A stretch of 62,665 bases of DNA, filler included. It is 6 parts of 6 records of this genome, joined end to end, with 100 filler letters (N's around TTAATTAATTAA, not from the genome) between each part and the next. Parts side by side here need not be neighbours in the genome. Positions count along the whole stretch, not along the records: positions 25,264 to 43,476 come from SRR31147125_34614; 5 more parts are not named here. One strand, written 5' to 3'. The notes under the pieces are model-generated. The model saw only the letters and a list, made by a program, of their open reading frames with translations. It did not search any database and was not told where the DNA came from. Position numbers and translations under genes: made by a program. Below are positions 22,948-43,576 of this stretch, in pieces. Numbering within the stretch: the stretch's first letter is position 1; every line of letters starts with the position of its first letter.

Positions 22948-22948
22948 C

Positions 22949-25163: not shown

Positions 25164-25263
25164 NNNNNNNNNNNNNNNNNNNNNNNNNNNNNNNNNNNNN
25201 NNNNNNNTTAATTAATTAANNNNNNNNNNNNNNNNNNNNNNNNNNNNNNNNNNNNNNNNNNNN
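25164..25263. other. Synthetic contig linker
   Basis: N44-TTAATTAATTAA-N44. Confidence 0.98.
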
Positions 25264-25397
25264 CTCCCCGGCGTCAGGTACCGAAAAGGATTGTCTGATA
25301 GTTCTCCTTGTGGCTTTTCGGTTCTGGCATTTTTCCTGACAGTATTGGATAAATCGGTTTTATCTTTTTGCTTTATGTGAGTTTTTAGAAAGGCCAT
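25264..25397 (-). CDS. N-terminal fragment of an unknown protein (contig edge)
   Basis: ATG with AAAAGG upstream; the frame is open into the linker and co-oriented with the tail locus. Confidence 0.45.
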
Positions 25398-25588
25398 TAC
25401 ATGCCTTTTGATCGTCTAAATTCATTCAATAATTAGTACATTTAAAAATAATCTGGGTTTTCTTCACCATAATTACAAAATATGGGTATTTCCACTTTCC
25501 TTATCTATTCATATCATTCATTAGCACTCTACATACCGTGAATCTTCACCACAACCGCATTTCTTAAAATCTTGAATCCACATGAATA

Positions 25589-27393
25589 TCACACTAGTAA
25601 CCGATGTATGACTCCTTTAGGCTCTCGTTGAGGCGGACTCATTTCATAATCGGTAATCCAGATAAACTCACCATCGCAACACATTTTTGCAAAGTGACGA
25701 GAATCGGAAATGTTGTCACCCGGTTGATAATTGCTAACACCTCTGATTTCATATGGATCGATTCGATGAACACGCTGGCCCTGGAATTCAGCTGCCCATA
25801 AATACATACCATCGAATGCAAGTCCACATAAATGATAGTTAACATTCGCAGCATCTTTCGGAATATGAGAGTCAATATCTACATTCGTTGCACCATTCCG
25901 ATGTGTAACCCATACATGTGTACCATCAAAAACTATATCTTGTGGCGTATCTCCAAAGCTAATCTCCTTGATTAACGGAGCCTCATTTCCATTTAGCTCA
26001 ATCCTATTTGCGCACACTTGATTATTTGGACCTGAACATACAACCCAAATATGAATCCCATCAAATGTCATTGCAACTGGTGATTCGAAACTCAAATGAT
26101 CAAGATATTGTTTTTCATGAGTATAAATATTTATTTTGGTAATTTTACCTTCACTATGGCCGATCCAGACTGAATCACCAGCAAATATAATTTCTTTAGG
26201 CGGTAAATCGACTTCAATTCTGGCTTTTATCACACCCGGAGCACCCGTTGCTTGATCTATTTTTGGGTAGATTTTCGAAACCAGATTTTTATTGGGGTGT
26301 GTTACCCACAAATAACAGCCATCGAAAGCGATGCCGTAGCTTTCAATATCCGCTAATTCCGGCGTTTCATTTGCTAATGCAAGTTTTTGTGAACTTGTTC
26401 CCCAGCGGTCAATTCGTACCACGTTTTCATTGTCAGTCCCATCGTCTGTAAACCAGATATAGTCGCCATCAGTCGTTATATTAAATGGATGTTTTCCTAC
26501 ATCCAATTTCTTTCTTCCAGGTGTGCCTTTTATATCCTCTTCATTCCAATGGTCCGTTATGGTCAAGATGCGGCCATCTTGATGTTCTAATCCTCTAATC
26601 GTCTGAGATAACAATGGCACAAACTGGCGGCGGTCAATTCTGGCCCCCCTACCTCGGTGGACAGTTTTTTCAAGCAACTGGTAAGTACCTCATTACTCCA
26701 AAGATATTTTCTGAGGCTGTGATTATCAATCGATTTTAATTCCTCCTCAAAGGTAACTTTTGCTAAAATTATCCAGTAACACTTTTTCCGAGGTTCACAG
26801 GGATTTACAATTTCCTCACAAGTGGTTTCAATAGTTTCGGGACATCGAATTTCGAATTCTGTCTCACAATCAGTCGGTGGCTCATTCTCAAAAGCCTTAA
26901 TTTCAAATAGTTCCCGTATTCTGCTGTATTGGCATTCTTCTTTTGATTCACTACATTTTTGTACTGGAACAGGTACTGGTTCAGAAAGACATTCTTTGTA
27001 ACGAATACAAATATAAAAGGTGTCCGGACCAGGTGCGCCAGTGGGCGGAGGTTGAGTAGGTTCTAAAGAAAAAGTTTCTTTACTCTCCTCACCCTTGCCG
27101 TATAGGTCAATGGTTTGTTCCTCGCCAACAAAAATTTCATGACCATAGTGATCCAGTGCTAATCCAGGTTTAACAACTACCTGAGTGGTACATTTAGAAT
27201 GACATTCTACCGTAAGTCCGCAAACTACGCCCCAGCCTATGGAGCGCCGGTTCAATAGCCATCGTTTTTCATTAAAATAACTTTGTTCTGTTAAAAAATC
27301 GCGAACAGTAAGGAGTTTGCCGAAAAAGTAGTTTAGTCTCTCAAAAAAACTGATCTCGCTGTTGGAAAGCCCAATTTCTTCCTGTATTTTCAT
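25589..27393 (-). CDS. Fibre-like CIS protein: conserved attachment-type N-domain + beta-propeller, frameshift near 26645-26670
   Basis: N-terminal ERLNYFFGKLLTVRDFLTEQSY..GWGVVCGL; C-terminal FDGxxxWV repeats. The two ORFs overlap across A6/G6 runs. Confidence 0.6.
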
Positions 27394-27490
27394 GATTGAT
27401 TTCCTCCAAATACATCTATCAAAAATTGCTCAGTGCACTTGATTTTGATTTTAACAACACGTAAAGAAAGGCCAAAATATGATAATGAGA

Positions 27491-28981
27491 CTATAAGAAT
27501 TCATTCATCATTTCTCTCCATTCATTTAATCGTTGAGAATGAGTATGGTTTGTATGTACATATTTGTTACCATTTTTGGCTATTTCTCTTGCCTCATGCG
27601 GATAAATCAAATAATGGTTTAGTTTTTTTCTAAAATCATTTTCTGACTCTGCTAAAACCATATAATCACTACCATTTCCAAAAATATCCCCAAAACCATT
27701 TTGAGGTCTATCTGCTATTAGCAGCGCCCCACAAGCAAGAGTCTCAAAATATTTCTGATTGAGGTAGCGATATTTACCACAACAATTGAGAGCAATTTTA
27801 GTTGAAGCCAAGGCCCTAGCATAATCCATATGAACTACTTGCCGTTGTTCTGGCAGTTGACATGTATAATCTAGCATAAACTCATTGCGAACAATTTCAA
27901 CCATACGATTTCTAAAGGGATAGCTATCTTTAGGATTTAAAGAACCAATGAAGCTTATATCTATGTAGCGGTCTGAACAATAATTTCTAAATATTTTATC
28001 ATCAAAGCTAAAAGGAAGCCACCGACAATCCGTCACGCCATTAAATCTTTTCTTAAAGTCAAACATGTCATCTAAAGATCTAAAAAAGCATACATTGATT
28101 TTATTTTCTTTTATCCATTGTGCCCGTTCTTCCTTCCAGAAACAAGTATCTATCAGGATCATACATTTAGGAATATCTATATCTCGAAGACCATTGAACT
28201 TTTTAGCACGCGTAAAATTATATAAAAAGATTAAATCAGGTGGATTTGAATCATATAATTTTTTAATCACATCCTTCACTCCCAAATGAGAGTTGTAGCC
28301 TGGATATCCTTCACCATACATAGTTACATCATACTGCCTAGCGACAGTCATAGCCCAGGTGTGGTGACCAAAATTATATCGATTAACTTCATTAGGATAG
28401 AGGTATAAAATCCGAAGTGGTCTCTTGTTGCTTATTAAATTGCGCAATCGTCCCCAAAAACAAAACCAACGATTATTATTAAGACGATGAGTATGTCTAA
28501 GGACAACGCTTCCTTTAATATCTATATAGTTCGCTGCAAATGTTTCTGCCGTGTGATGGTTGTACGTTCTTTTATGACCCGAACCTCCGAAATTAGGGAC
28601 AGAGAAAAAAACTTTAGCTTCGGGTTTACATAACCTAAGTATTCTCATCATAAATTGATCGGGATCTTCCACATGTTCAACTACCTGACCAAGATGAACC
28701 GCGTCAAATGTCCCGAAATTTAAAAAAGAGTCCAGTACGCTTCCTTCAATATATTTAACGTTTTCGTTGATGTTTAAGGGATCAAGGTTTAATTTGGTAT
28801 CAATTGCTGTAACTTTATAACCAAGCTTCCCAAGACCATTAGCGAATGTTCCATCATCGCATCCTACTTCAAGCGCCATTTTACCATCTGCATCTGATTC
28901 CCCAAAAAAATCCAAGGCTTTTTTATATCGATAATAATATGAGTGCCCGTCGGTTTGGCACCACAATCTTAATTTTCCCAT
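27491..28981 (-). CDS. Class I SAM methyltransferase fused to CgeB-like (Glyco_trans_1_2) glycosyltransferase
   Basis: LEVGCDDG..FDAV..VVEHVEDP, then DISFIGS..KIALN..KYFETLACGA..EIAKNG..HTHSQR. Confidence 0.82.
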   Translation of the reverse strand: MGKLRLWCQTDGHSYYYRYKKALDFFGESDADGKMALEVGCDDGTFANGLGKLGYKVTAIDTKLNLDPLNINENVKYIEGSVLDSFLNFGTFDAVHLGQVVEHVEDPDQFMMRILRLCKPEAKVFFSVPNFGGSGHKRTYNHHTAETFAANYIDIKGSVVLRHTHRLNNNRWFCFWGRLRNLISNKRPLRILYLYPNEVNRYNFGHHTWAMTVARQYDVTMYGEGYPGYNSHLGVKDVIKKLYDSNPPDLIFLYNFTRAKKFNGLRDIDIPKCMILIDTCFWKEERAQWIKENKINVCFFRSLDDMFDFKKRFNGVTDCRWLPFSFDDKIFRNYCSDRYIDISFIGSLNPKDSYPFRNRMVEIVRNEFMLDYTCQLPEQRQVVHMDYARALASTKIALNCCGKYRYLNQKYFETLACGALLIADRPQNGFGDIFGNGSDYMVLAESENDFRKKLNHYLIYPHEAREIAKNGNKYVHTNHTHSQRLNEWREMMNEFL

Positions 28982-29040
28982 GTAACTTTTACCTTGTTGT
29001 TCTACAGAAAATTCAAAAGTTTTAATTCTTTAGTGAACAT

Positions 29041-29922
29041 TTAAATGTCCATAGTGAACTTTTCGAAAAACCAGTTATCATTGAATTTTCGCTTTTCCAT
29101 AAGATTTCGTCTTCTCATTTCAATATCACTATGCAGAAGCATATCATATGCCTGATTATAATTAGGTAGTGATTTTAAAGCTGCCTTACCCTTTTCAACT
29201 CGTTCAGAACTGAAATGTGTATATATTGTACGGAGTTTATTATAAACCGTATTCACCCAACTTACCGGATAAGGGAATTTCGAACGAAATAAATGAGAAA
29301 CAACAATTTGAGGAACAATATATACTTCGTAACCTAGTAACCAGGCGCGCAGACAGACCTCCTGATCAGTACTACCATAGCTCCTTAATCCATGATCAAA
29401 CCCGCCAATTTCGTTAAATACTGCTCGACGAAAAATCATGCATGCGAGACCGACCATTGGAACAGGATATGGAAAATGGAATTGTTGAGGCAGCCAGGCC
29501 ATATCCAATCTTGCATTCCGCCAACGCATACCAAAAGCCTTTGCGTTGGGATTACTCCATGAAGAAAGTGCGGGTGCTACAATACCGATATTTTTATTTT
29601 GCAACTGTTGAATTAGCGGTTTCAACCAATCTGTAGGAAACAGAATATGCGCATCCAGGAAGCAAATAAATTCACCCTGCGCTTTCTGAGCACCAAAATT
29701 TTTAGAGTTAGCAGATCCTAATCTTTCAGTTTTATATAGTTGGATTCGAGGATCCTCGATTTCCTCGCCAATAAAATTACTACTTCCATCAGTAGAACCA
29801 TCATCAACCACAATAATTTCATAATCTGCATTTGTGTTTGCTTGAAGGTTCTGAATCGTCCTTTTTAAATTTTCCCCTTCATTTAAAGAGCCAATCACAA
29901 AACTTATTAGTACATTAGCCAT
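29041..29922 (-). CDS. GT-A glycosyltransferase, polypeptide GalNAc-transferase-like
   Basis: VVDDGSTD, FLDAH, WLKPL, FDHGLRSYGSTDQE..RAW and HLFR..PY motifs. Confidence 0.85.
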   Translation of the reverse strand: MANVLISFVIGSLNEGENLKRTIQNLQANTNADYEIIVVDDGSTDGSSNFIGEEIEDPRIQLYKTERLGSANSKNFGAQKAQGEFICFLDAHILFPTDWLKPLIQQLQNKNIGIVAPALSSWSNPNAKAFGMRWRNARLDMAWLPQQFHFPYPVPMVGLACMIFRRAVFNEIGGFDHGLRSYGSTDQEVCLRAWLLGYEVYIVPQIVVSHLFRSKFPYPVSWVNTVYNKLRTIYTHFSSERVEKGKAALKSLPNYNQAYDMLLHSDIEMRRRNLMEKRKFNDNWFFEKFTMDI

Positions 29923-29925
29923 AAT

Positions 29926-30804
29926 TCAAATATTCATGTTAAATTCTTTAAAGAACCAGTCATCATTACGAATTCTATTTTCAAAAAAATGTTGTCTCCG
30001 TTGCCAAATATCACTTTTTTGTACCTCATTATATGCACTGTTAAAAGAAGGTAATGTCTGTATCGCTCTAATGGATCTATCCATTCGTTCTTCGCTAAAA
30101 TGGCTTATAACAGTACGCAACATATTATATACTACTTCATACCAATGAACTTTATAAGGATGTCTCCGTCGAAAAAGGTGTAATATTTCGACTTCTGGTA
30201 CGACACATACCTTGTATCCGAGGGTCCAAGCCCGAAGACAAATTTCTGCATCCTCACTTCCAAAATTCACCATACCTGAATCAAAACAACCCATTTCAAA
30301 AAACGTTGTAGCACGAAAACCCTGAAACATACCTGCCACCATCGGAACCGGATAAGGTTCATGATTTTGTTTTGCCAGCCACAGCATATCCAACCTGGGA
30401 TTGCGCCATTTAAAACCATATCCCTTTGATCGTGAGTTACCCCAGTTAGAAATCGTTGATGCTACTATCCCAACTTTTTCCTTTTTAAGCAAATAAAGCA
30501 GTGGTTCAATCCAATCCTTTCGAAACAAAACGTGCGCATCTACAAAAAATAAGAATTTACCCTGTGCTTGTTGAGCACCAAAATTTCTTGCATTGGCAAC
30601 ACCCAGCCGTTCAGTTTTAAAGAGTCGAATTTGTGAGTTTTTTACTTCTCTTTCAAGAAAATCACTACTACCGTCGGTAGATCCATTATCTACAACAATG
30701 ATCTCGTAATTTTGCGTTAATGTATCTTGTAGGCTTTCAATTGTTTTGCGGAGATTGTCACTCTCATTCAGAGTTGGTATTACGATACTAATCAGCATGT
30801 TCAT
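29926..30804 (-). CDS. GT-A glycosyltransferase, polypeptide GalNAc-transferase-like (paralog)
   Basis: VDNGSTD, ARNFGA, FVDAH, WIEPLL, MVAGMF, FDSGMVNFGSEDAE and HLFRRRHPY motifs. Confidence 0.85.
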   Translation of the reverse strand: MNMLISIVIPTLNESDNLRKTIESLQDTLTQNYEIIVVDNGSTDGSSDFLEREVKNSQIRLFKTERLGVANARNFGAQQAQGKFLFFVDAHVLFRKDWIEPLLYLLKKEKVGIVASTISNWGNSRSKGYGFKWRNPRLDMLWLAKQNHEPYPVPMVAGMFQGFRATTFFEMGCFDSGMVNFGSEDAEICLRAWTLGYKVCVVPEVEILHLFRRRHPYKVHWYEVVYNMLRTVISHFSEERMDRSIRAIQTLPSFNSAYNEVQKSDIWQRRQHFFENRIRNDDWFFKEFNMNI

Positions 30805-30830
30805 TAATTCACTGTTTAATAATTTTGTAA

Positions 30831-32026
30831 TTATTTACTCTTTTTTACTACTTTAAAAATACCTTTTTTTGTAACCGGGAAACTTCCTGGATTAATCACA
30901 GTGACATCACGTGGACCTATCTGTGCATTTTTCCATACTTTAATCATAACTTTTAGTTCATTCTCCTTGATAAATTTTTCACCTTTTTTAGTTATTCCCC
31001 TATCTCTTGGTTCTCCGAAATCGACTTTTGATTCTTTTACGAAATGATTACCCTTTATTATCATTTCACTTTCTTCACCTTGTTCCAATAATTTAGGAGC
31101 CACGTCCTTTATAATCGGTGCTACACTCTTTTTTGGCTCAGCCTCCACCACAGAAGATGGTTTGTAGTTCATTGTGTATCTGGAAGCAAGAGGTGGTTCC
31201 TCCGTAGGCTGAGGTTCATAACACTGCCACCAATCGTCTATTAGACTTTTCACCAGTCGACGATGTTTGCAACAATCTATGTCTTCAATATTACCCTTAT
31301 CATCCAGCTTTATATCTGCCAGTATGACCCATGGTTCTTCGGGACATTGTGGACAAGATGGCAGTTCTTCTCTTCTTGTATAAATGGGTCGTGTCAGCCA
31401 ATCAATTTTTTGGACTGTGTCTAGTTTAGATTTAAATCTAGTAAGAAAATCAGTTGAATCCCCATCTAAATCCTCATGTGATGATGGTAAATCCATCAAT
31501 GTTTTAATAACAAATCCCTCTCTTATACGAGAATGTTCACATCGAACTTCATCACAATTGCATCCCAGCGGATGAGCTCTAACTGGACGAGTATCATACT
31601 CTTGATATTTTATAGCAATATATATCGTTTTACCTCCCAAGCCGCTTTTTTCACATCACGACACCATGGATCAATCCCATCTTCTACCGTTCCATGTACT
31701 TCCTTTCGAACGTCAAAAGTCACCTCCTGATTAACAATGATCTCATCCCCAAAAGGTCCCAAAATATAACCTCTCATTATTTTCACCAGCCAGGGTTCAT
31801 ACGAACCATTTTCACTTCTGTCCTCCTTTATAACAGGTTGAACCTCGCACCCACAAACAACTCCCCAACCATGCAAAAGACGATTATGGCGACGGAGTTT
31901 GTCACGGAAATACTCCTGTTCTGTGTTCATATCATCCGGAGTAAGGAGCATTCGAGGGAAATATCGTACTCGTTCCAATGTAAAACCATCTGAAAGTTTA
32001 CAATCTAAGATTTTCATTTGTGCCAT
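30831..32026 (-). CDS. Fibre-like CIS protein: conserved N-domain + C-terminal IPT/Ig-like domain, frameshift at A6 run 31646-31651
   Basis: ERVRYFPRMLLTPDDMNTEQEY..HGWGVVCG. One added A joins the ORFs (DVKKSGLGGKTIYIAIKY). C-terminal PIIKDVAP..IKGNHF..GPRDVTVINP. Confidence 0.65.
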
Positions 32027-32220
32027 AAGTTACCTCCATTATCCTTTAAAAAGGACAGATGTTTATTTTTACACAAATCATATTATAACTCAAAACATTA
32101 TTAATGATTATTTTGTATCAAAAAATCATCTTAAAATAGTTTACATCCGACGAATTCAAGAAAAACATGATAGCAATGACCTAAATCTATTTATTTAAAT
32201 TCTCTCTCTCGTAGAAACAA

Positions 32221-34795
32221 TTAACTTAGAGAAGTCTTTATGCCCACCCGACTGTCCTGGGCAATTCGTCCCTCGTCTCTACGTCTTCCACCGAATTCAG
32301 ATATTATTGTGTCTTGCCCTAATTTTGTAGACCTCGTTAATACCATATCAGGAGCCTCCTCGGACACAATCGTGTCAATACCAACCCGGGACTGGAATCC
32401 CACCCGCATTTTAGGTTCTATTGTGCAGAGGTGATAATCAGTATGGGCTGGTTTTTCTCTTTCTATTATTGTTTTAATTTTCTCCACATCCTTTTGACAT
32501 TTCAGTTGACACCAATAAACGAGAACATAAAAGAAATGAGCTACGTCTTCAAACAAAGGTGCACCAAAATCCTTGTCCTCAATCAAATGGGACTGATCCA
32601 ATGTGGCAGTCGTGCCTACAACAGCTCCTTGTGCATGAGCCGGCGCCAGCATAGTAGAAAAACCTAAAAGAGAACCATCCGTATGCAGCCAAATATCATT
32701 TGGTTGAGCTTGCAAATTTTTCTGCTCATCATTTTGATCTTGTGTTGATGTTGGTGGACAGATTAACCAGCATTCAGGTTGTTCTGTCTGCGCCTTTATC
32801 GTTTCTTTTTTTGCTGGCAGACACCAAAGAGATGCTGTAAGCAAAGGTTCTTCGATTATAGCATCTACGTTCGCATAAAGCTTAAGGTATTGCATTAAAC
32901 CTTCAACAGTGCCTCTTTTCGCTTGTAATTCAAAGGCTTTAGCAATCGCATCACGCTTTTTCTGTTCGCTCCAATCTTCATCCAGATCCATTGCCACCCA
33001 GCTTGCCAGCCAGGGCAAAAACCGTTCAGGAACGGCATAAGAATCGAAATATTTAGGCAACCTATTGATTTGTTCTTCAACACCATCCAGAACACCTTCA
33101 AATAATGATAAAAAGCGTTCCAGGAATTCCCGGCTTTGATTATCTTTTGCATATATAGGAGGCAAATAACGTAAATAAGTGTCCTGATTGTAATCAATCC
33201 GAATCCGATGTATAGTTGGCGATACAGTCTCATCTCCCCAAAAGAGACCTCCAAGCCATAAATACTTTGCCGATACTCTGGGCAAGGGTGCATTAGCCTC
33301 CGCATATTGTTTTGATAAAGGGCTAATATTATTATGTGGCAAACTTGGGATTAAAGCATCCAGAGTATTGGTCGGGATTGGATGCCAATCTTCATCGTCA
33401 AATGGATTCTCCGTATCAGGTAAATAAATGGGTTCCTGTTCTTCGTTACTTGTGTAAGCAAATAATTTGAGTTGTGCTTCCTCGGGAATTTGTTCTGCTT
33501 GTACCTGCAGGCGATGCCATTGAACCGCTGTATCTTCAGGATTATATGGTCCTGCCAGGAAACTTCCCTTTGGAAGAAAAGCTCTTCCAGGGAAAAGTCT
33601 TACCATCTTTGGCGGTTCGCCTGGATGTAGCAATAAATTCCCATTACTATCAATACACAAAGCAGCTACTGGGCCATCGTAACCACGAGCCTGTCCAACA
33701 AATTTCCCATTGGTCCGGAACTTGAGTACCGCCTCTCTGGCATTGTCTCCGATGTACACCGAATCTTCAATAACTGCAATGCCAGCAGATTTAACTTTTG
33801 TATACTCAGTAGGAATCGTATGTTTTAAAATCAACGTTTTATATTGATTATAATGTATGATACCAATAGATTTTCGTAGAGACTTCAAAAACTCTTTATA
33901 TTTGATAGGCTTGTTTCTTCTTAATATTGTTAAACTATTTAGAATAACTTTTGGAACGTTTTTCAGTTTTAACTCATTAATAGATTTATCAGTTATTTCA
34001 TAACTTCCGGGAGGAACTGTTATTGGCCAGGGTTTATCAATTTTCAGGTGTCCCTTCGTATCAAAAACAAAAACCAGATCGTCTTCAATGTTTGGTCTAC
34101 AATCAACAACAAAAATTCGTTCTTCATCACCTATTTTTGTGATTGAAATAAAACATGGTTCTTGTAAGGTCAAATTAGCTGTTTTGACTTGCTTATAGAG
34201 GACATTCCAAAAGTCAGTAATCACATTCCCTCGACTGTTAAACTTCTGAATTCGCTGGTTACCATGATCAACGACATATAAAGAGCCAGCACTATCCTCA
34301 GCTATTTCCCATGGGTCCTTGAATTTGCCAGGTTCATCACTGGATCGAGGCTTAATAAATGGTTCTGCTTGGCCCCAAACGTTTTCAAGTTGCAAAGTAT
34401 CGAGGTCAAATAATAAGACAAGATGGTTTCCACTATCAACTACATATAATATATCATTCTTTCCAACGAGTAATCCGCGAGGAGTATTCAGTCCAACCTT
34501 ATTCTTTTCTCTATCCAAACAAGGAATCGGCTCTATATTTTCTGTGCATATGTCGTATTTGAATATTCGATGTCCAATGGGATCTGACAAGTATACGTTG
34601 CCATGCTTATCGGTAGTAATACCTGCCGGGACCTGAAGTCCTTCAGGTTTCTGGTATGTTATTTCTTCTGAATTCTCAACTTTAGGTACGTGCGTCAGAG
34701 TGAGCGATCCATTTGGATTGATCTCTAAACCGTTTAGTTTAAATGATGGCCAGCGATTTTCGAGGTTTAAAAAGAAGAATTTTTTTATTTTCCAT
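32221..34795 (-). CDS. NHL-repeat + phage tail protein I (P2 gpI-like / TIGR02242-type) baseplate wedge protein
   Basis: NHL repeats (LYVVDSGNH, YVVDHGNQRIQKF); YLRYLPPIY..FLERFL..FLPWLASW..RGTVEG..IIEREKPAHT. Probable start MENKKFFF at 34795 with one extra A. Confidence 0.85.
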
Positions 34796-34804
34796 ACGAG
34801 TACC

Positions 34805-35782
34805 TTACTCTTCAATGCCCATCCATACAATGTGCCAATTTAAAAATTTTCTAAGACCTGGAATGTCATATTTATATTTATCAAAAAATTGAGATGGATT
34901 TATTGGTGGTAGATAATTTGTTTCATCTATTTCAGGCATTAATAGTCGAAATTCAAATTTTCTCTCAAAAGGTATATCTTTAATAATAGATATGTTGACA
35001 AATCCTTCTAATAAAAATTTATCAACATCTTCATTAAAATGCGCTTGATAAAAGCGCTCACCTGCCACCCGTGCAGAATAGTGTGGAAAAGTGTTAAATT
35101 TTGCTTCAGATGTATCGACTTCAGCCTTAAGACCTATCACTATGCCACCCTCTTTCCAAAATTTCCAATTGGTATCTTGGGGATCTGTTTTACCTGCAAA
35201 AATCCGCGGAAGCTTTTCCGGATGAGCTTTCCTTGGTATTAAGTCAATATAGATATGTTTTATCTGGCAATTTTGAACTGCTAAACGCTTGATAATGATT
35301 TTTAGACCGTTTTTGATATCAGCCTTCATGCTGTCGTCTTTAGGCTGGAAATTCTGATCAAGTTCCACCCAATGGAACACAGGATCCTCGACAAGTCTAT
35401 CGGCGTCATTTGATAATTGTATCCTCTCGTTTTTTGGGGCCTCCTTAAGGTGGCCTTCATCTGAGTAGGAAATGGCCAAATCGTAATTCACCGGATTACC
35501 GAAACCGTCGTCAGCTATTGGAGGAATTGATAAAAGGCGTCTTTCTGTGAGCACAATTTCCCTGCCGCGCGAGTCAATGGTATAACCTGGTGCAACGGCC
35601 AGCTCGCGATCTCCTACGTTTCCACTCACAGAAAAGCCCATGCCGATACCGGGTTGATGCAGACTCTGGTTGTGCCGCCAGCGCATTTCGCGATTAAATG
35701 CTGTAAGTGTCTGCATATCCGATGCAAACAGACGCTGTCCGGTAAAAAATTGAATGCGTTCAACTTTTTCAATAATTTGCAC
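34805..35782 (-). CDS. Fibre-like CIS protein, paralog 3
   Basis: ERIQFFTGQRLFASDM..REMRWRHNQSLHQPGIGMG; ends WMGIEE. Confidence 0.65.
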   Translation of the reverse strand: MQIIEKVERIQFFTGQRLFASDMQTLTAFNREMRWRHNQSLHQPGIGMGFSVSGNVGDRELAVAPGYTIDSRGREIVLTERRLLSIPPIADDGFGNPVNYDLAISYSDEGHLKEAPKNERIQLSNDADRLVEDPVFHWVELDQNFQPKDDSMKADIKNGLKIIIKRLAVQNCQIKHIYIDLIPRKAHPEKLPRIFAGKTDPQDTNWKFWKEGGIVIGLKAEVDTSEAKFNTFPHYSARVAGERFYQAHFNEDVDKFLLEGFVNISIIKDIPFERKFEFRLLMPEIDETNYLPPINPSQFFDKYKYDIPGLRKFLNWHIVWMGIEE

Positions 35783-35840
35783 TTACATTCCTCAGTAAAA
35801 AATATTATTCATTATTCAATTTCTTTATTTCAACATTTAA

Positions 35841-36866
35841 TCATCCTTCAACAGCAAACCATTTTATACTCCATCGTAATCTATGCAAAATAAGCTGACG
35901 CTCCGAATTTGTATATTCATTAAAAAATGCAGGGGGATTTATTTTAAAACTTTTCAATTTCATTCTTTGCGGCATTAGAATATATAGTTTAAAACCAGTA
36001 GTGCTAGGACTTGGAATTTCATTAAGTTTTTTGATATCAACGTTTAAAAAACCATCCAGTAAATATGGATGAACTTTATAAGGATCAAGGTTAGGATCAA
36101 CATTTTCATCAACATATCTTTGCCCACTTATTTCAACATAATAATCTGGTGGATTTGTAAAGTTTGCAAATGAGGTGTTGATAGAAATAGTCAAGCCAAT
36201 TGGATGATTTTGGTTAGTCCACAATACCCATTCAGTCTGTGTAGGATTTGGAAAATAGGTACCAGAGACAATATTCGGTCCCTTTGAGGGTTTGGCATTT
36301 TGACGTTGAGCGATAGAAATCTTCTTACTCAGCCTACATTTCTGGATCTCTGTTCGCACAATGGTGATTCTTAGACCTTCCCGTATTTCATCTCCTAGAT
36401 CACCAATCGGCTCCTTTTTATCAGGATCTAATTCCACCCAGCAAAAATTAGGTTCCTCGCATAAACGAACAGTGCCGCGTTTAAGACAAACACCTTGGCG
36501 TGTTTCGACCTCTTCTAACTTTATTTCTTCAGGATAGGAAACAGTAAGATCGTAAAATGCGGAATTGCTATTTCCACCGCCAGCCACAGGTGGTACAGGC
36601 AAGACTTTGGTTTTGGTTAAAACAATTTCTCGGCCTTTGGAATCAATGGCGTAACCCGGTTGAATTTCTACTTCGCGGTCACCAATTTCACCTCTCACTG
36701 CAAAACCACTACCAATACCGGGCTGATGCAAACGTCGGTTATGGATCCACCTCATTTCACGATTAAATATTTCTATACTTTGGAGACCTGAAGCATATAA
36801 ACGTTGTCCAGAAAAGAATTGCATTCTTTCAATTGTATTAAGCCCTGTACTATTCAACGTTAGCAT
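35841..36866 (-). CDS. Fibre-like CIS protein, paralog 2
   Basis: ERMQFFSGQRLYASGL..REMRWIHNRRLHQPGIGSG; ends WFAVEG. Confidence 0.65.
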   Translation of the reverse strand: MLTLNSTGLNTIERMQFFSGQRLYASGLQSIEIFNREMRWIHNRRLHQPGIGSGFAVRGEIGDREVEIQPGYAIDSKGREIVLTKTKVLPVPPVAGGGNSNSAFYDLTVSYPEEIKLEEVETRQGVCLKRGTVRLCEEPNFCWVELDPDKKEPIGDLGDEIREGLRITIVRTEIQKCRLSKKISIAQRQNAKPSKGPNIVSGTYFPNPTQTEWVLWTNQNHPIGLTISINTSFANFTNPPDYYVEISGQRYVDENVDPNLDPYKVHPYLLDGFLNVDIKKLNEIPSPSTTGFKLYILMPQRMKLKSFKINPPAFFNEYTNSERQLILHRLRWSIKWFAVEG

Positions 36867-36881
36867 TTTATCTTACCTCAA

Positions 36882-37889
36882 TCAAAAATTTTGTGTTGTC
36901 TCCATTAAGGATTGAATACCAATCCAGGAAATAAATAATTCTTGCTTACGAAAAAATTCAGAAATTAGGCCCAAGCTAGATTCAGCCAATTCACCTTGGG
37001 ATATAGAAGAATTAATATCATTTGTGTAGCGCCCACACAACCAAAATCCATTGACTACATAGCGATAGAAGAGACATATTTTCGGAAGTAAAATTCGAAA
37101 TGTAAAAGAATTTTGTGAAGCGTCATCAGCTATACTTTCGAATGGAGCTAAATAGAACTCCAAACCTTCATCAGCTCCATTAATCCAAAACGCACCTTGT
37201 AAGGATGCAAAATAATGAGGGGATTCAGTAAATTCTGCTAAAGAGGTATCAACTATTGCCTCCATCCCAACAGTATAATCATCTTCCTTCCATGGCGTCC
37301 ATATTGTCTCTTCTGGTTTTGTCGATCCAGTTCCAATTCGAGGTCTGGCTATAGGGCGTGAGACAGGTATCGGGACATCTAGTTTTTCTTCGAATACTGG
37401 ATTTTCTGAATTACTGTAGCGCACTTTTGCTAAGGGAACGCCATCTTTCAGCTCTAACAATGTTTCGGGTTTCCAAAAAAATTCCGGTTGTTCGAGTAAA
37501 GGTTTTGCTTTATCTGATAAGCAAACCCCTATTATTTCGTTTGGATTTGTAAAAGTTCTCGTTTCTTTGTATCGAATTAAAAGTATGAGTACCTGTTCTT
37601 TTTTTACAGATAAAGAAGGAATTTGAACAATACGCGAATCATTTAGGATGAGCTCTCGTCCATAACAATCGTATGCCAGACCAGCTTCAATATTTAGAGA
37701 CGAGACATTATTTTCTGTCACTTTCATCCCATAATTAACACCATACGATTCGTGTAAAGCTCGGTTATGCAACCATCTTAACGTATCCGCGATCTCATTA
37801 TCATCACGCAAATCACGTGAAGCAAGCAATTGGCCTTTTTTATAGCGAATTCGCTGAATTTCGGGATTACAATTTTCTCCAATAATCAT
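36882..37889 (-). CDS. Fibre-like CIS protein, paralog 1
   Basis: QRIRYKKGQLLASRDL..LRWLHNRALHESYGV..GLAYDCYGRELIL; WIGIQ near the end. Overlaps the baseplate stop (ATGA). Confidence 0.65.
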   Translation of the reverse strand: MIIGENCNPEIQRIRYKKGQLLASRDLRDDNEIADTLRWLHNRALHESYGVNYGMKVTENNVSSLNIEAGLAYDCYGRELILNDSRIVQIPSLSVKKEQVLILLIRYKETRTFTNPNEIIGVCLSDKAKPLLEQPEFFWKPETLLELKDGVPLAKVRYSNSENPVFEEKLDVPIPVSRPIARPRIGTGSTKPEETIWTPWKEDDYTVGMEAIVDTSLAEFTESPHYFASLQGAFWINGADEGLEFYLAPFESIADDASQNSFTFRILLPKICLFYRYVVNGFWLCGRYTNDINSSISQGELAESSLGLISEFFRKQELFISWIGIQSLMETTQNF

Positions 37890-40192
37890 AGGGTTACCTC
37901 TATAGCATGATTATCCGATGTAACAAGTTCAATTGGGCAAAGTGGAATATTTCCACATTGCGGTTCACCGCCATCTGCAACAAGTTGCAGTAATTCAACA
38001 TGATCAACGCCTTCAACCTGATCAATAATCTGTAGAATCTCAGACCTATAAACATCTCTACCTAATGGCCAACCCATTCCATCCGGGCCACCTATGCGTG
38101 GATCAAGAAATGCCTTAAGCACCTCTGATATTTTCGAGCCAAGTTCGTTTTTTTCTATTCCTGCAAATGCCTTTACCGTTGTTTGCACTTTTATTTCTCG
38201 GAATTTCGGTCCAACGATATTCAGTCGCATACCAACAATTCTGCTATGGTTGAGATATTTTTTTACCGCGGAAAGTAGGCCACAACCGGGTTCAGGTTTG
38301 GCAACAGGCATGTTCGGCATGACAACAACTGTCACAACGCCTGGTGCCTTGAAACAAGGTAAGTCTGAGTGGAGGTTGGCCCAGACTGCCACCCGAGCCA
38401 ACTCTACACCGGGCGTTTCCATGGCAAGTTTTTCAATATCCATCAATGTAATAGCGCGCTGTGTTTTTTCCGTCATTTCCATAACTCGCCCTTGAGCCTG
38501 GGTTAATGTCTCAGCTGCGGTCCCACCTACGGCAGGTATAGGATTCGTAATTTTTGTAATTTTTGATTTGACATTCTCAACGTCAATAACAGAACTATTG
38601 TGCAACGAGGTCGTGAGTTGGTCAACTACGTGTGCAGATAAATTGCCGGCCTCGGCACGCGTAGTTCGATAATCCACTACGATCCAGGAATCCAGAGGTG
38701 GAACGCGTCCTCGTTCCCCATCACCAAAAATTACCTCACCCTCAGTAGGATCTAAGATATAGTGAGAATCGACGCGGCTGGAGGCATCGAGATCGTACTT
38801 TAATTCCCATTCATGCCAAACATAGTTCCACACACTCTCTTCCATTTCGCTATCTTTCTCGAGACTTGCTAATTTGAAATTTTGGCGTACAGCAGGCTTC
38901 TGGTCGAGAACAAACTTTTGCAGAGGACTTTCATCGCTCTTTCCTAAAACTGACTTTTCTAATATGATCCACCCATCCTGCTTACCCTCAGGTGTAGGAG
39001 GTTTGTAATCCAAAACAAACACTTTAGGGAGTTCTTTGACATTGGGCTCAAAAGATAATTTTCGCACAATTCCCTCCTGGTCTAAGGCAAGTTGAATTTT
39101 AGTTGTAGTTCCCTTTTCTGGAGGAGGCCCAGAGGGCGAAACATCAGCGGCAATAGTGAGCTTCCACTCTCCAACAGGAACCGCTTGCTCGGCAGGAATG
39201 GCATTCATTATTATATTTTGAATTACAGGTGGTGAATCATACTCACCACTGTCAAAGCGACAGCGCACATAATATTGCGGGTTCATGATTTTCCCAAGGC
39301 GTTTCGGACTCATCGGTTTTGGTATTTTCAAAATAACCCGGCCATCTAAGGTAAATGCCCGAGTATCATCGAAAATCTCGCTGTTTCCTGAAGACAGTGC
39401 TTCCCACTTTTCAGTGCCTTCCGCACTTGTAAGAAACTCCCAGATGGTTTCTACTGAATGATGCTTGATTATCAAGTTTGTTTTGTCATCATTATTCAAG
39501 CCACTCTCATTTTCGTTTTGTCTATCCTGGTTACACATAAAATTAGATTGCTGTTTGCAGATTGCATTAGAAGCTTTAATTTCATTAATGATTCGAATAA
39601 GTTCTGCCATATCCTTACGCAATCCAGCTATTTTGAAATACAGGCTCGCAGACCCACATTCGAATAAATCTTTAGAAAAACCAAAATAAATACAAGATCC
39701 GGGAGTAGGTGTCGCACCAAATACAGGAAACTTTTGCCACGTATTATCTTCCTTTCTAATTTCTCGAAAAACCGAACCATCAAATAATTGGATAGTTACC
39801 AAATCTACAGCTACAATTGTGATCGGGTACTGTGTTAGAAAAGGTGTGGTCTTCCCAAAAGGATCCTTTCCCTCGAACTCCACAGAGGCAGGTAGTTCCA
39901 GGGAATTGATATTGGGTAACAATGAAAAGCTCAGAACTGTTTTTGCCGGCTCTGGCGGCTCCGAATAGATACCTGCCAGAGCAAGGAATTTCCTCCGATG
40001 ACTTTCGGGTATCCGATTGAGCTGGTATATATCCATCTCTACCAGCCAAGCGAATAGTTCCAAAAGTGTTATCCCTGGATCATGCACATTGTGGTCTGTC
40101 CACTCAGGCGCATAAAATGGGATGAGTGCACGGCCTTCTTCGATCAGGTCAGCCCATTTTCGATCATCTAGATTTGGTAATGGTAGTGGCAT
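37886..40192 (-). CDS. Putative baseplate assembly protein (Baseplate J, TIGR02243-type)
   Basis: PLPLPNLDDRKWADL..IPFYAPEWTDHNVHDPGITLLELFAW, FGDGERGRVPP, GGTAAE, RAITLMD and GWPLGRDVY motifs. Confidence 0.92.
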   Translation of the reverse strand: MPLPLPNLDDRKWADLIEEGRALIPFYAPEWTDHNVHDPGITLLELFAWLVEMDIYQLNRIPESHRRKFLALAGIYSEPPEPAKTVLSFSLLPNINSLELPASVEFEGKDPFGKTTPFLTQYPITIVAVDLVTIQLFDGSVFREIRKEDNTWQKFPVFGATPTPGSCIYFGFSKDLFECGSASLYFKIAGLRKDMAELIRIINEIKASNAICKQQSNFMCNQDRQNENESGLNNDDKTNLIIKHHSVETIWEFLTSAEGTEKWEALSSGNSEIFDDTRAFTLDGRVILKIPKPMSPKRLGKIMNPQYYVRCRFDSGEYDSPPVIQNIIMNAIPAEQAVPVGEWKLTIAADVSPSGPPPEKGTTTKIQLALDQEGIVRKLSFEPNVKELPKVFVLDYKPPTPEGKQDGWIILEKSVLGKSDESPLQKFVLDQKPAVRQNFKLASLEKDSEMEESVWNYVWHEWELKYDLDASSRVDSHYILDPTEGEVIFGDGERGRVPPLDSWIVVDYRTTRAEAGNLSAHVVDQLTTSLHNSSVIDVENVKSKITKITNPIPAVGGTAAETLTQAQGRVMEMTEKTQRAITLMDIEKLAMETPGVELARVAVWANLHSDLPCFKAPGVVTVVVMPNMPVAKPEPGCGLLSAVKKYLNHSRIVGMRLNIVGPKFREIKVQTTVKAFAGIEKNELGSKISEVLKAFLDPRIGGPDGMGWPLGRDVYRSEILQIIDQVEGVDHVELLQLVADGGEPQCGNIPLCPIELVTSDNHAIEVTL

Positions 40193-40229
40193 TTGTTTTT
40201 ACTTTTTCTCCAAATTCTTTTTCTATAAT

Positions 40230-43200
40230 TTATTCTGATATTTTCATTTTCAAGAAAATCCTGCCCGCAACTGTAATGCGATCGGGAGCAATTCTTACTC
40301 TATTGCCTTGAGTCAAACCCTCCTGTAATAAGGCAAGGTCTTCAACATAATCAACACCTTCTACCCTTTCCACAACCGCGGCTACATCAGAGAGAAACAC
40401 ATCTCTTCCCGGTTCCCAACCCAAACCTTCTGCACCCCCGCGCAAGGGATGGAGAAAGTTCTGAATCGCTTGCCGGACACAATTTTCTACGACGCCCGAT
40501 TCTGACACATTTATCGGCGCAACGATTAAAGAGACACCCACTGGCTCATAATTCGGTCCGGTAACATGGATATGACCTCGTTCTGCCAGATCAGCGGATG
40601 CACGCTTTTCTATATATTCATGTACATACCTGCGCAGACCAGCGGTAGGCCAGGGCCGGGGTTCATCGCTTTTTGGAATGATGATTAATGTTATCCATCC
40701 AGGTACGATACGCCCTTGAGCATCTCGCAAAGGTAAAGCACGCGCTACCGCAACAGCAGGATTGGCTTCGAATGCCATTGTTTCGAAATCATTGCTGGTC
40801 AGAGCTCTGTCTCGATATCGCAGTGCTCTGGGGCCGCGCTCCGTGAAAACAGTGATGTTTTCAGTATCTGCACCGCCCTCAGCTGGTAAGGGATTGAAAA
40901 CTCCTTGAACCGCTGCGGCTCCGGATAATAACTGGGTTATCTCATTTGCCTTTACATTTCCAACAGAACCACCACCACTCCTATATTTACGAGCGATTAT
41001 TTCTGAACCAACCGGTGGAATCTTTCCCTGCTCTCCGTCACCAAAAATAATACGACCTTTTGCTCTGTCAATCATATAATGACGATCGTTGGAACCTGAA
41101 AAGAACAGGTGTTTTCTTTGTTGCCATCTTACCCAAGCTCCTATAACTCTTCTATTCTCATCCCGCAGTAAACGCAACTCGCCATATTCAGTTAAGAGTG
41201 GTGAAGCCGACTTGTTTAATAATTTTTCCAATTCCTCCATAGATTTGGTATCGCCCTTGAACAACTCACGGGCTAAAATTCGCCATTCCACATGTGCTCT
41301 GACACCTTCCAACTCTCGTACTTCTATCCACTCATCGGCCAAAACCGGCTTGTATCGAGTTACAAAAACCTGATCAGGTTGTCCATTGCTCTGACCCAGT
41401 CTTTCATCGGTCATTGTTTGAACTTGCTGAACCCGGACGGCATTATGATAAAGGTTAATAACATTGCAAACGGCTGGTAATTGGTCTTCTTTTAATCTCC
41501 CGCGGATCCAGTAGCGTTCGACTGCAAATCTTGATAATGGGCCAGCATCAGAAGGAGCAATAAAAGACACCATCCCGGGAAGTGCCAAATTCCCAGTTTC
41601 GTCCTCCTCAACCAATAAAGATCGCCACGCAGAGCCATCATAATATTCCCAAACCATCGCTGGTCCTTCGACCTGATCGTTTTTCTCTTCAATATTGAAA
41701 AACAAGTTGAAGTAATCATTCGGTAGTTTTTTATCAAAACCGAAATAGACAGTTGGCGTCACATCTGCCGGAGGACGGAAAGGTTGAAAGGTTTTTCCAG
41801 GCCATTGAGCATTGTAGGTTCGGTCTTCGTATTGAAAATCGTTATATGTTAAAACATGTTCGGCGTGGAAAGGGCCATATTGCCAGGTGTAGCCTAGACA
41901 TAATTCAGACCAAGCAGGAGGTTGTTGTAACACAGATTTAAATTCATTAGTAATCTCGACAGGAGGGGGATTAGGATTAACGATCCTAAATTGTACGGTT
42001 TTTATAAAACCAAAACCGCCGCTCAACAACCTTATCCTTATCCAAAACCTTCTTCATTATTGACTTTTACTCGTGCTATATCTGGAGGAACTACAAAATT
42101 GATTATCGAAAGTCCACTTCTGATAGAGTCTATTGTTGAGAAATCAGATTTCTCCAAAGAAAGCAGGTGCCAATGATTACCATTCCAGTATTCCCAAACC
42201 AACTCGGATTCAATTGGATCTATAGTGACATCCTCAAAATTTATTAAGCTATCCTGAGGAGATTTTGCTTTTATTATTACTAGTCGAATTGAAGCACCTG
42301 GTTTACTAAAAGCTTCTTCACTACCTAGGTAAAAGATATCTCCTGGTGTAGGTTGAATACCGAAAGGAAAAAATGTTTTATTTAAATCCAACTTTGTAGT
42401 ATTAAAATATGCTTTAACGCCTTCAATACCGCAATAAACATTTATTAATACATTAAAATCTTGTTCAATGGGTAATTGGGCAGGTGCATAAGAATTTACA
42501 GTTAACTCTTGCGACTCTCCAGTAAATCCTAAAAGTATAACCTCTACCTTATATTTACCATCTCCATATCCCTGTATTGCAAATTCATATTTCCCCTGAT
42601 TGTCTGTTTCCATCTCATCCACTAATATGAATTCACCCTTTGTAACATCATATTTATAAAGTAAAACCTGAACTCCAATGAGAGGAACTTCATATTCATT
42701 TCGAATAAAACCATAGATCGGTCCAGTGCCTTGTGCTGGTTTTGGTTCTTTTGCTTTTAAAAACAACTTTAAATCATAAGGTCTATTTATTATGCTACTC
42801 AATCGAATAGCATCCACCTCCGGCAATATTTTCCCAGGATCTGGTGGCATTGGCTCTGTTAAACGCCCACGAATCCAGAATGCATCAATACCATTGACTG
42901 TTTTCTTTTTGGTTTCGGCACAGTCTGTCTCCAAGTAATATTTACCACTTTTAGTCAACCCTCCAGTAGCATCCAGTTTTTTAACATCTTCACCGCAAGC
43001 AGGATTCATGTCTTTGAAACCACGCCAGATCTTGCCATCCCAATATTCCCACAGGATATCCAAATGTTCGCTGCTGAGCTGAGTTAAATCAAACTCTACA
43101 ATTATCCTCGCTTTGCCAGCAAAAGCAAGAAGTGTATCGTGCGCAATATAAATAGCATGTGGTATATTTTTTGGTTCTTTGAATAGTTGAAATGGTTTAC

Positions 43201-43476
43201 CAGATAAATGTTCAGCCGAATGATCGACGTATTGGTCACGCCCTGGCCATAGACTAACTACCTCTACTAAATTTGCAGCAGCGATGCCGGTTGTCGACTC
43301 GATTTCAAAGACAATCTGATCCGTTCCTTCTGGTGGTGGCGGGGCTGCAACCCGTGTGCCTGCAGGAATGCGTGTATCGGCAGCTCCATTGGTGAGCTGA
43401 AAGACAACAGGGGCTCTGGCTGCCTGGGCTGGAACAAGATCGATACCCATTGTGTCAAGAAAAGCCAAAAGATTTT
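40230..43476 (-). CDS. Large Baseplate J-family protein, 5' truncated, frameshift near 42045
   Basis: ORFs 42038-43468 and 40230-42029 join with one added T (EEGFWIRIRLLSGG). WEYW, SNGQPDQ, FGDGEQGKIPP, GGADTE, RALTSNDFE and FLHPLRGG..GWEPGR motifs. Confidence 0.88.
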
Positions 43477-43576
43477 NNNNNNNNNNNNNNNNNNNNNNNN
43501 NNNNNNNNNNNNNNNNNNNNTTAATTAATTAANNNNNNNNNNNNNNNNNNNNNNNNNNNNNNNNNNNNNNNNNNNN
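43477..43576. other. Synthetic contig linker
   Basis: N44-TTAATTAATTAA-N44. Confidence 0.98.

Follow-up and report, generated by a model that had tools for sequence, protein, structure and literature searches.

One contig of the 62,665-base stretch of DNA analysed here (the window), from an uncultured bacterium, carries a baseplate and fibre module of the kind found in extracellular contractile injection systems (eCIS). Within it, enclosed by genes for receptor-binding proteins, lies a cassette of three enzymes: two GT2-type glycosyltransferases (GT2a and GT2b) and a fusion of a methyltransferase with a third glycosyltransferase (the MT-GT fusion). This arrangement, first noticed in an initial annotation of the stretch, is confirmed, and the co-oriented run of baseplate, fibre-like and glycosyltransferase (GT) genes listed there is present gene for gene on the minus strand, at the positions it gave. 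To judge from its genes, the 18.2-kb contig is the baseplate/fibre (distal) half of an extracellular-type contractile injection system (CIS). The cassette is tentatively read as a machinery that, in the cytoplasm, would O-glycosylate the Cis13-type receptor-binding proteins encoded on either side of it and cap the glycan with methyl groups, a reading that we prefer while giving doubt slightly the greater weight.

The case for an eCIS begins with the baseplate. Genes of the gp6 type (Cis11) and of the gp7 type (Cis12) stand together in one operon, the combination by which an eCIS is recognised, and TIGR02243, TIGR02242 and Tail_P2_I are all matched above their cutoffs, in agreement with the earlier assignment to a TIGR02243/TIGR02242-type eCIS locus. 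Cis12 scores 52.9 bits for Tail_P2_I (cutoff 20.6), 49.2 for NHL and 99.5 for TIGR02242 (cutoff 51.85); against the NCBIfam equivalog CIS12_fam (NF053768) it reaches 166.2 bits where the cutoff is 860, as a relative of that family and not a member. The 768-aa Cis11 has at least 2089 homologues, the best of them 59% identical. With an alignment of the Cis11 family 284 relatives were confirmed in species genomes, and the best 80 loci (31-46% identity) were retained; these come mainly from Acidobacteriota and Chloroflexota, with Actinomycetes, Gemmatimonadota, one cyanobacterium and others. Common to the 80 is the order Cis11 (about 1150 aa), Cis11 (about 760 aa), fibA, fibB, NHL-Cis12, a Cis13-type gene of about 270 aa and another of about 390 aa, and the NHL part of Cis12 likewise occurs in relatives. 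Upstream of this block, one Acidobacteriaceae locus carries genes for a tube protein (TIGR02241), a LysM protein and VgrG-related proteins, and a 35-kb contig of the cyanobacterium Microcoleus sp. FACHB-1515, the one related locus read from end to end, holds genes for a sheath, CIS_tube-LysM, a VgrG-related protein, a Pvc16_N cap and an AAA ATPase together with two for eCIS_core proteins. On the Microcoleus contig neither capsid nor terminase genes were seen, and gp25 and PAAR were not identified; the 18.2-kb piece itself holds no capsid, portal or terminase gene, the upstream part of its locus lying beyond the contig end. The Cis11 family alignment found no relative among 2.9 million viral contigs. 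Conserved order, a full eCIS in Microcoleus and the lack of a viral relative therefore place the locus in an eCIS-type clade, and from these relatives we infer the sheath-to-spike half for the window organism.

All five fibre-like proteins (fibA to fibE, in the order of transcription) share one N-terminal motif, match NF053767 over positions 2-105 or more (E 3e-5 to 6e-25) and possess the N-terminal baseplate-anchor domain; as full-length members of NF053767 they fall short, the best reaching 88 bits where 370 is the cutoff. The earlier count of five fibre-like genes thus stands as a count of Cis13-type N-terminal domains and is amended in two respects. The fourth and fifth are each split in the deposited sequence, and what the genes between Cis11 and Cis12 encode are no long fibres but short proteins resembling receptor-binding proteins, which the clade as a whole conserves. 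Of the 80 related loci, 78 have a fibA homologue in the corresponding place and 77 a fibB homologue. The structural model of fibB (predicted local distance difference test, pLDDT, 82.6) resembles the TssK shoulder (Z 6.4) and the receptor-binding protein of phage 1358 (Z 8.4) in its N-terminal part, and the H-type lectin domains of discoidins and Helix agglutinins (HPA) in its C-terminal part (Z 6-8), all of these being middling Z values. Since fibB has an H-type-lectin-like head, sugar recognition belongs to the system. The H-type lectin fold is known for binding N-acetylgalactosamine (GalNAc), and fibB and fibC place such a head beside GalNAc-transferase-like enzymes, which may be a coincidence or a write-and-read pair.

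The best solved relatives of GT2a are polypeptide GalNAc-transferases (ppGalNAc-Ts; 1.1e-17 for GalNAc-T2), ahead of the GT2 enzymes of polysaccharides and lipid carriers. D89-A-H91, GSEDAE and LHLFRRRHPY of GT2a pair in the alignment with LDSH, GGENLE and GHVFRKQHPY of GalNAc-T2, and D89, H91, D185, E187 and H209 are invariant across 24 members of the GT2 family. We take the DxH motif and the C-terminal His to be metal ligands, and GSEDxE is presumably a Gal/GalNAc-T-like motif. The GT2a model (pLDDT 95.1, predicted template modelling score, pTM, 0.93) overlays the catalytic domains of ppGalNAc-Ts over its whole length with TMq 0.85-0.88 at 23% identity; all PDB matches listed for it are ppGalNAc-Ts, and viral structure models returned generic GT-A matches only, weaker than these. 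GT2a and GT2b are accordingly described as soluble catalytic-domain homologues of ppGalNAc-Ts and as putative protein glycosyltransferases. At 292 aa GT2a has no ricin-type lectin domain, no membrane anchor and no further Pfam domain, and none of the three cassette enzymes contains a hydrophobic segment (maximum KD19 1.29). The N-terminal part of the MT-GT fusion finds UbiG-type O-methyltransferases in the PDB (9e-8). Among the five matches of the fusion one is a close homologue (72% identical), and language-model look-alikes offer a lead, of that standing only, to the same architecture in other bacterial gene clusters.

The cassette is fitted closely into its surroundings. The initial annotation had the GTs enclosed by structural genes with gaps of 3-100 bp, and the gaps around the three enzyme genes measure 26, 3, 59 and 97 nt. 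The GC content of the cassette is 0.36-0.38, and 0.29 at third codon positions (GC3), against 0.37-0.41 and 0.25-0.34 in the adjacent fibre genes. Terminator-like sites number 21 (shuffled sequences 12.8 +/- 4.5), all of them inside genes and none in the gaps around the enzymes; a promoter scan did no better than shuffles (55 vs 51.0 +/- 6.1). The cassette is predicted to be transcribed with the two flanking fibre genes. A misassembly at the cassette edges was looked for and none was found, a 33,888-base contig from a second assembly spanning the piece collinearly.

According to the proposal favoured here, the cassette enzymes would do their work in the cytoplasm, on fibre proteins, ahead of particle release. 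The first sugar would be placed on Ser or Thr of a fibre protein by one of the two ppGalNAc-T-like enzymes, the likeliest acceptors being the pair of Cis13 proteins encoded next to the cassette; the other GT2, together with the fusion's CgeB-like GT domain, would lengthen the glycan, and the fused S-adenosylmethionine (SAM)-dependent methyltransferase would O-methylate it. The product might be a short capped O-glycan that alters fibre stability, protease resistance, binding or self-recognition. Gene content, operon layout, continuity of the frames, the homology of the GT2 enzymes to protein O-GalNAc transferases with retained metal-binding residues, and recurrence beside Cis13 genes are observations; acceptor, sugars, order of steps and benefit are all suppositions. 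The initial annotation's suggestion that the particle or its fibres are glycosylated and methyl-capped is strengthened by the whole-length homology of the GT2 enzymes to protein O-GalNAc transferases and keeps its conditional character. Taken more broadly, this would be a CIS that encodes its own mucin-type-like O-glycosylation pathway for receptor-binding proteins (two ppGalNAc-T homologues, a CgeB-like GT and a capping methyltransferase), with different GT2 lineages recruited to one and the same place between Cis13 genes in at least two or three phyla, a claim that we hold possible and regard as doubtful. In a bolder version still, H-type-lectin-like heads on the particle's own conserved short fibres may recognise the glycan that the cassette makes, which would provide a self-recognition or fibre-latching device.

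Whether the association of GT and fibre genes recurs was assessed in the related loci, 57 of which reach at least 3 kb beyond Cis12. With GT2a and GT2b as queries across all 80, a GT2 was found in two of these 57, both times beside Cis13 genes. In Microcoleus sp. FACHB-1515 a 325-aa GT2 (46% identical, 1.4e-80) lies between a gene for a 758-aa Cis13N-propeller protein, the counterpart of fibE, and a gene for a 434-aa Cis13; the same two fibre types therefore flank the GT in the window and in Microcoleus, in opposite order. In a Bryobacterales locus a more distant 517-aa GT2 with Glyco_transf_7C follows the Cis13 gene. Two further related loci have GTs solely on the opposite strand, beyond the operon. 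The wider GT2 family, with at least 982 homologues, is rare in sampled genomes. A survey that scored six candidates per genome, with thresholds of E <= 1e-40 or 1e-45, met it in 4 of 1203 genomes: two cyanobacteria (one of them the seeded genome), one member of the Chloroflexota and one of the Acidobacteriota, each group being sampled with 401 genomes. By a rough estimate about 2e-4 GT2 genes of this family would be expected in the roughly 313 kb of sequence that follow Cis12. Because the family is rare and yet occupies the same place in a related locus, the link between CIS and GT2 is more than chance.

A quick tree built from 125 family members places GT2a beside P0121 and P0122 (support 99) and GT2b beside three metagenome proteins, P0132, P0148 and P0149 (support 100); the Microcoleus GT2 falls in another clade, with two non-CIS genes, and the Bryobacterales GT forms a long branch. 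CIS-linked GT2 enzymes in different clades suggest separate recruitments. One more CIS-plus-GT locus is probably represented by P0002, the second-best Cis11 match (49%), and P0122, the second-best GT2a match (64%): both are singletons, the contig recorded for either one is 31,979 bases long and their source is the same, and the shared figure of 31,979 is the whole basis for pairing them. Protein-glycosylating-type GT2 genes have thus landed between Cis13 genes oftener than their rarity predicts, and apparently more than once. Beyond species genomes, single queries with GT2a and with the MT-GT fusion gave no match in viral contigs, where the GT2 alignment brought up only distant GT2 genes, mostly at 30% identity or less over the longer matches; a metagenome scan with the GT2 family alignment was dominated by generic GT2 genes (best 26-44% identity over parts) and supplied no context for the family.

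The same figures can be turned to a different account, in which the cassette is a passenger: an accessory insert in a recombination-prone fibre region, with enzymes that act off the particle on a surface glycan or glycoprotein of the producer or on a small molecule. Its rarity, two of 57 related loci, is what such an insert would show, and the differing order of the flanking fibres in the window and in the Microcoleus locus (L064) means that the region rearranges. Outside CIS loci, moreover, members of the GT2 family are accompanied by methyltransferases and other GTs (G1084 and G604), and the best NCBIfam match is MftF, which acts on a small molecule, at 80.7 bits, far below the cutoff of 280. 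In a possible variant the cassette would mask the producer's own receptor from the lectin-headed fibres, as phage Gtr modules do. The H-type-lectin-like head of fibB, which makes sugar recognition part of the system, also speaks for the passenger account. An off-particle role, second in likelihood to fibre glycosylation, is nevertheless rather unlikely. The enzymes are soluble and no export, flippase or lipid-carrier gene adjoins them: Pfam and NCBIfam scans of the 18.2-kb piece detected no flippase, ABC exporter, polymerase, chain-length or priming transferase gene of a lipid-linked polysaccharide operon. The initial annotation had allowed that the GT homologues might sit mainly in ordinary polysaccharide operons, for which the piece offers nothing. 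Tight spacing, a composition equal to that of the fibre genes and the whole-length fold match of GT2a to protein O-GalNAc transferases also tell against a passenger, as does the presence of a GT2 at the same spot in three or four separate CIS loci although the family is so rare.

Several observations weigh against fibre glycosylation, and they are best seen together. As many as 55 of the 57 loci have no cassette GT2, and the MT-GT fusion occurs in none of the 80. Since 55 of 57 lack the cassette, the CIS machine works without it, and its rarity makes it a sporadic accessory and not a core part; the idea of a fixed feature of this type of CIS is weakened accordingly. Three members of the GT2 family other than the seeded one have no CIS neighbours in view, two with about 20 kb of context and the third on a 3.3-kb contig, which weakens the idea that the family is specific to CIS. 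In one of these the GT2 is fused to DUF6065, with methyltransferase and transposase genes nearby, another belongs to a cluster of GT2, GT2 and a double methyltransferase, and the one on the 3.3-kb contig stands beside a subtilase. The fibre region is a variable spot in which unrelated genes could lodge, and the glycosylation of the fibres is itself inferred. No homology to the virion GTs of mycobacteriophages was detected: among 50,697 phage records, tblastn with GT2a gave 62 weak matches (1e-6), none of them Mycobacterium by the first word of the organism name, and the MT-GT fusion gave no match. Finally, Ser/Thr/Pro-rich linkers, which would be the likely sites of sugar attachment, were considered as a mark of GT loci and rejected. 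Such linkers do occur in the fibres beside GTs, as PSPE repeats in the Microcoleus fibre and as TPTPTPTP in the Bryobacterales fibre, and in Ser/Thr/Pro density the Microcoleus L064 fibre ranks first of 252 Cis13-like proteins and L048 is within the top 12; many loci devoid of GTs have them as well (17 of the 252 proteins at 0.57 or above), and the window's own fibres lie only at the median, 0.40.

A further alternative, also raised by the initial annotation, is that one or more of the enzymes are injected cargo, loaded in the tube to glycosylate a protein of the target cell as the glycosyltransferase domain of an Afp18-related toxin of Yersinia ruckeri does with RhoA. Enzymatic toxins whose genes lie towards the operon's fibre end are known from eCIS, one eCIS effector on record is a glycosyltransferase (Jank 2015, via PMC10598620; Geller 2021), and about 290 aa, the length of the GT2 enzymes, is a plausible size for cargo. 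The domain DUF4157 is treated in parts of PMC8213781 as an eCIS marker linked with toxins. In the clade under study this eCIS_core (DUF4157) domain is present in 44 of the 98 proteins scanned downstream of the fibres, in 31 related loci (98 of 121 candidate proteins, 23 being left out), and Microcoleus has its two eCIS_core proteins elsewhere in the cluster. GT2a, GT2b and the MT-GT fusion, on the other hand, have no match to PF13699 (eCIS_core/DUF4157). They sit between structural genes and not at the 3' terminus of the operon, and two paralogous GTs with a third GT and a methyltransferase resemble a glycan-building pathway and not a toxin. Injection of the enzymes, which these points weaken, is thus improbable. 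The piece has no eCIS_core/DUF4157 gene of its own, and it stops 325 bases past the last fibre gene.

The third alternative concerns the integrity of the locus. The deposited sequence shows four breaks of open reading frames (ORFs) in 18 kb, and a decaying locus would be one in which the split ORFs are pseudogenes, baseplate and fibres are dead and the cassette has no working partner. A second assembly was made from one public run that contains 99% of the stretch's sampled words; it possibly derives from the same sample and is independent of the consensus calling and not of the organism. The 33,888-base contig covers the whole piece in one alignment at an even depth of 33; apart from one substitution, what sets it off from the deposit are extra bases at 26664 (+1), 31645 (+1), 34779 (+2) and 42043 (+1). 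Three of the four insertion sites were inspected, and each lies within a homopolymer run at an ORF junction (an A-run at 31645). By frame arithmetic, the single insertions at 26664, 31645 and 42043 each fuse the upstream with the downstream frame. The pieces, further, match intact homologues end to end. In a single homologue of 1124 aa, the Cis11 ORF 42038-43468 aligns with residues 67-534 and ORF 40230-42029 with 541-1123; the fibD pieces likewise align with 13-142 and 138-335 of one 393-aa homologue. ORF 42038-43468, which matches TIGR02243 at positions 62-146, is therefore the N-terminal part of the gene whose remainder, ORF 40230-42029, has Baseplate_J and 170 bits for TIGR02243 (cutoff 155.8). 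The two Baseplate_J genes of the initial annotation are both present, and this third, related ORF belongs to one of them. With breaks that coincide with homopolymer runs and that the second assembly closes by inserted bases, with one further difference only, decay is highly improbable. The ORF breaks of the piece are best described as homopolymer sequencing errors, and the true gene set is predicted to comprise two genes of Cis11 type (of which the one truncated at the contig end lacks about 66 residues), a Cis13 of about 400 aa and a Cis13N-propeller protein of about 625 aa.

Coordinates of the genes of the CIS piece, in order of transcription, and of the spacers of the window
Feature	Position	Strand	Remarks
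Large Cis11-like (gp6/Baseplate_J) gene	40230-43476	-	5' end cut by contig end, about 66 residues missing; deposit splits it as 42038-43468 and 40230-42029
Second Cis11 (Baseplate_J), 768 aa	37886-40192	-	TIGR02243 286.5 bits (cutoff 155.8); Pfam Baseplate_J
fibA, Cis13-N-type short binding protein, 335 aa	36882-37889	-	NF053767 N-terminal match far under cutoff; shared N-terminal motif
fibB, Cis13-N-type short binding protein, 341 aa	35841-36866	-	TssK-shoulder-like N-domain and H-type-lectin-like C-domain (model)
fibC, 325 aa, extra fibB paralog	34805-35782	-	40% identity to fibB; NF053767 N-terminal match
Cis12 (gp7/P2 gpI-type) with N-terminal NHL beta-propeller	32221-34830	-	Tail_P2_I, NHL, TIGR02242; start uncertain (second assembly +2 bases at 34779)
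fibD, Cis13 fibre of about 400 aa, immunoglobulin (Ig)-like C-terminal domain	30831-32026	-	NF053767 2.5e-13; predicted single gene split at 31645 (ORFs 31610-32026 and 30831-31640)
GT2a, 292 aa	29926-30804	-	PF00535 1.2e-32
GT2b, 293 aa	29041-29922	-	PF00535 2.4e-28; 52% identical to GT2a
SAM-dependent methyltransferase (N-terminal) and Glyco_trans_1_2 (CgeB-like) GT (C-terminal) fusion, 496 aa	27491-28981	-	PF13489 3e-16; PF13524 1.4e-21
fibE, Cis13-N fibre of about 625 aa, seven-repeat beta-propeller-like C-terminal part	25589-27393	-	NF053767 6.2e-25; seven FDGxx[ILV]W repeats; predicted single gene split at 26664 (ORFs 26587-27393 and 25589-26677)
Spacers	7684-7783, 17692-17791, 25164-25263, 43477-43576, 50018-50117	.	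N44-TTAATTAATTAA-N44

The window consists of six contigs joined by five identical spacers (44 N, TTAATTAATTAA, 44 N), and the CIS locus is confined to one piece of 18,213 bases, 25264-43476, bounded by the third and fourth of them. Because the pieces were joined artificially, the window neighbours of the CIS piece are uninformative, and position 43476, as a contig end, is no end of the locus, which is simply cut there by the assembly; the second-assembly contig runs past the upstream end of the piece by about 14.3 kb and past its downstream end by 1.4 kb. On a separate piece, at 17965-25136, three genes have the look of an amino-sugar or nonulosonic-acid pathway, adjacent to the CIS piece only as an artefact of concatenation: a 1665-aa multidomain protein (surface-carbohydrate GT-like, FkbM and a second methyltransferase, TPR, polysaccharide deacetylase), a PseF-like cytidylyltransferase and a fusion of a hexapeptide acetyltransferase with a DegT aminotransferase. 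A thioesterase gene at 43728-44171 is on another piece and is unusable as context for the CIS locus. At 44203-46064, HMGL-like and Cache/MCP-like ORFs overlap in what seems to be one more place where genes are frameshifted or fused. In view of the homopolymer errors on the CIS piece, ORFs split elsewhere in the window may be errors as well. No RNA data set is listed as containing the stretch.

The related loci offered some further observations. The Microcoleus fibre adjoining the GT2 gene (L245:11740-14016, which is L064:17853-20129) contains a Pro-Ser-Pro-Glu repeat of about 60 residues, and a second Microcoleus GT2 (L246:303-1496; 397 aa, PF00535 5.5e-16) stands just before the AAA ATPase at the 5' end of the cluster, which puts GTs at both ends of that eCIS. 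After the fibres, eCIS_core proteins at L015:18822-20630, L018:19340-21148 and L033:13727-15943 end in an ATLF-like metalloprotease or a BURPS668_1122-type deaminase and are typical putative cargo toxins of the clade. A group II intron reverse transcriptase/maturase (L037:19086-20489) lies between the last Cis13 gene and an eCIS_core gene of its locus. Two Thermoanaerobaculia loci (L041:19184-21145 and L046:19406-21283) encode, after the fibres, a protein that contains an LGT (prolipoprotein diacylglyceryl transferase) domain; L046 has no Cis13-type gene detected past Cis12, and the two may represent a form of the system that is linked to the membrane.

What an injection particle binds is determined by its fibre proteins, and eCIS are being redesigned as vehicles for protein delivery. 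If the glycosylation of fibres by the cassette is true, it would be a new level at which the stability of the fibres, their range of targets and the way in which lectins or immune systems recognise them are controlled. It would further provide bacterial, soluble, single-domain homologues of the animal enzymes that initiate mucin-type O-glycosylation, with their natural substrate encoded next door. The Microcoleus sp. FACHB-1515 record is titled as that of a strain and not of a metagenome-assembled genome, and the idea is directly testable there if a culture exists. The initial annotation knew of no characterised CIS with such a cassette, and none was found in the literature, which likewise yielded no paper that describes an eCIS particle as glycosylated or a GT cassette as lying among the fibre genes of an eCIS; the string 'glycosyl' is absent from the main texts, as distinct from any other parts, of PMC12923769 and PMC8213781.

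Set against described systems, much of the locus is familiar. Passages of the 2026 catalogue of receptor-binding domains in eCIS (PMC12923769) describe Tail_P2_I-type baseplates that mount up to four fibres, with TssK-like anchors and with H-lectin, Ig and propeller heads. The eBAP3 and eBAP5 groups, as these passages present them, resemble the locus in having fibre genes downstream of Baseplate_J and Tail_P2_I, a TssK-like anchor and H-lectin, Ig-like or propeller heads, whereas here the genes with an anchor domain number five and enclose an enzyme cassette; Pfam DUF6519, which belongs to eBAP5, has no match on the piece. A multi-fibre baseplate and an NHL-bearing Cis12 are known features. 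In the thylakoid-anchored CIS of Anabaena, according to parts of PMC8894136, it is the N-terminal domain of Cis13, about 100 residues long, that attaches it to the baseplate, and Cis11 and Cis12 have extra domains. The likeness extends to partial matches with the NCBIfam CIS12 and CIS13 models and to the fibB model, which aligns to a baseplate chain of 7b5h with Z 5.8. Unlike the Anabaena system, the piece has no membrane helix in any Cis13-like protein (maximum KD19 1.28), its scores lie far below the NCBIfam cutoffs and no Cis19 was identified; glycosyltransferases go unmentioned in those parts of the Anabaena text. Loci of Streptomyces, Nonomuraea and Streptosporangium are among the 80 relatives, at 36-38% identity in Cis11. 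The CIS of Streptomyces is described as cytoplasmic (Casu 2023 and Vladimirov 2023, with a review passage) and is assumed in passages of PMC12923769 to be without tail fibres, unlike the present locus with its five anchor-domain proteins and their lectin-like, Ig-like or propeller heads.

Comparison of the enzymes leads to other systems. With the ppGalNAc-Ts (CAZy GT27; human GalNAc-T2) GT2a shares the catalytic fold, DxH, GSEDxE and the C-terminal His; unlike GalNAc-T2 it is bacterial, cytoplasmic and soluble, and lacks the ricin-type lectin domain and the membrane anchor. The Afp18-like toxin of Yersinia ruckeri (Jank 2015, in the part of PMC10598620 that treats it) is, like the enzymes here, a GT encoded in an eCIS locus, and differs from them as one domain of a large injected toxin differs from three small separate enzymes that have no cargo domain and lie between fibre genes. 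The closest functional analogue is offered by the virion cassettes of mycobacteriophages (Freeman 2023, as cited in passages of PMC11600133 and PMC12582341), in which a methyltransferase and several GTs encoded in the particle's own genome modify the particle's own structural proteins. In Cluster O an O-methyltransferase gene is followed by three for GTs, and the proteins modified are those of capsid and tail tube (passage of PMC11600133, citing Freeman 2023). Those systems are phages, and it is capsid and tail tube that they modify; fibre glycosylation by the present cassette, if true, would be the parallel to mycobacteriophage virion glycosylation in a contractile injection system.

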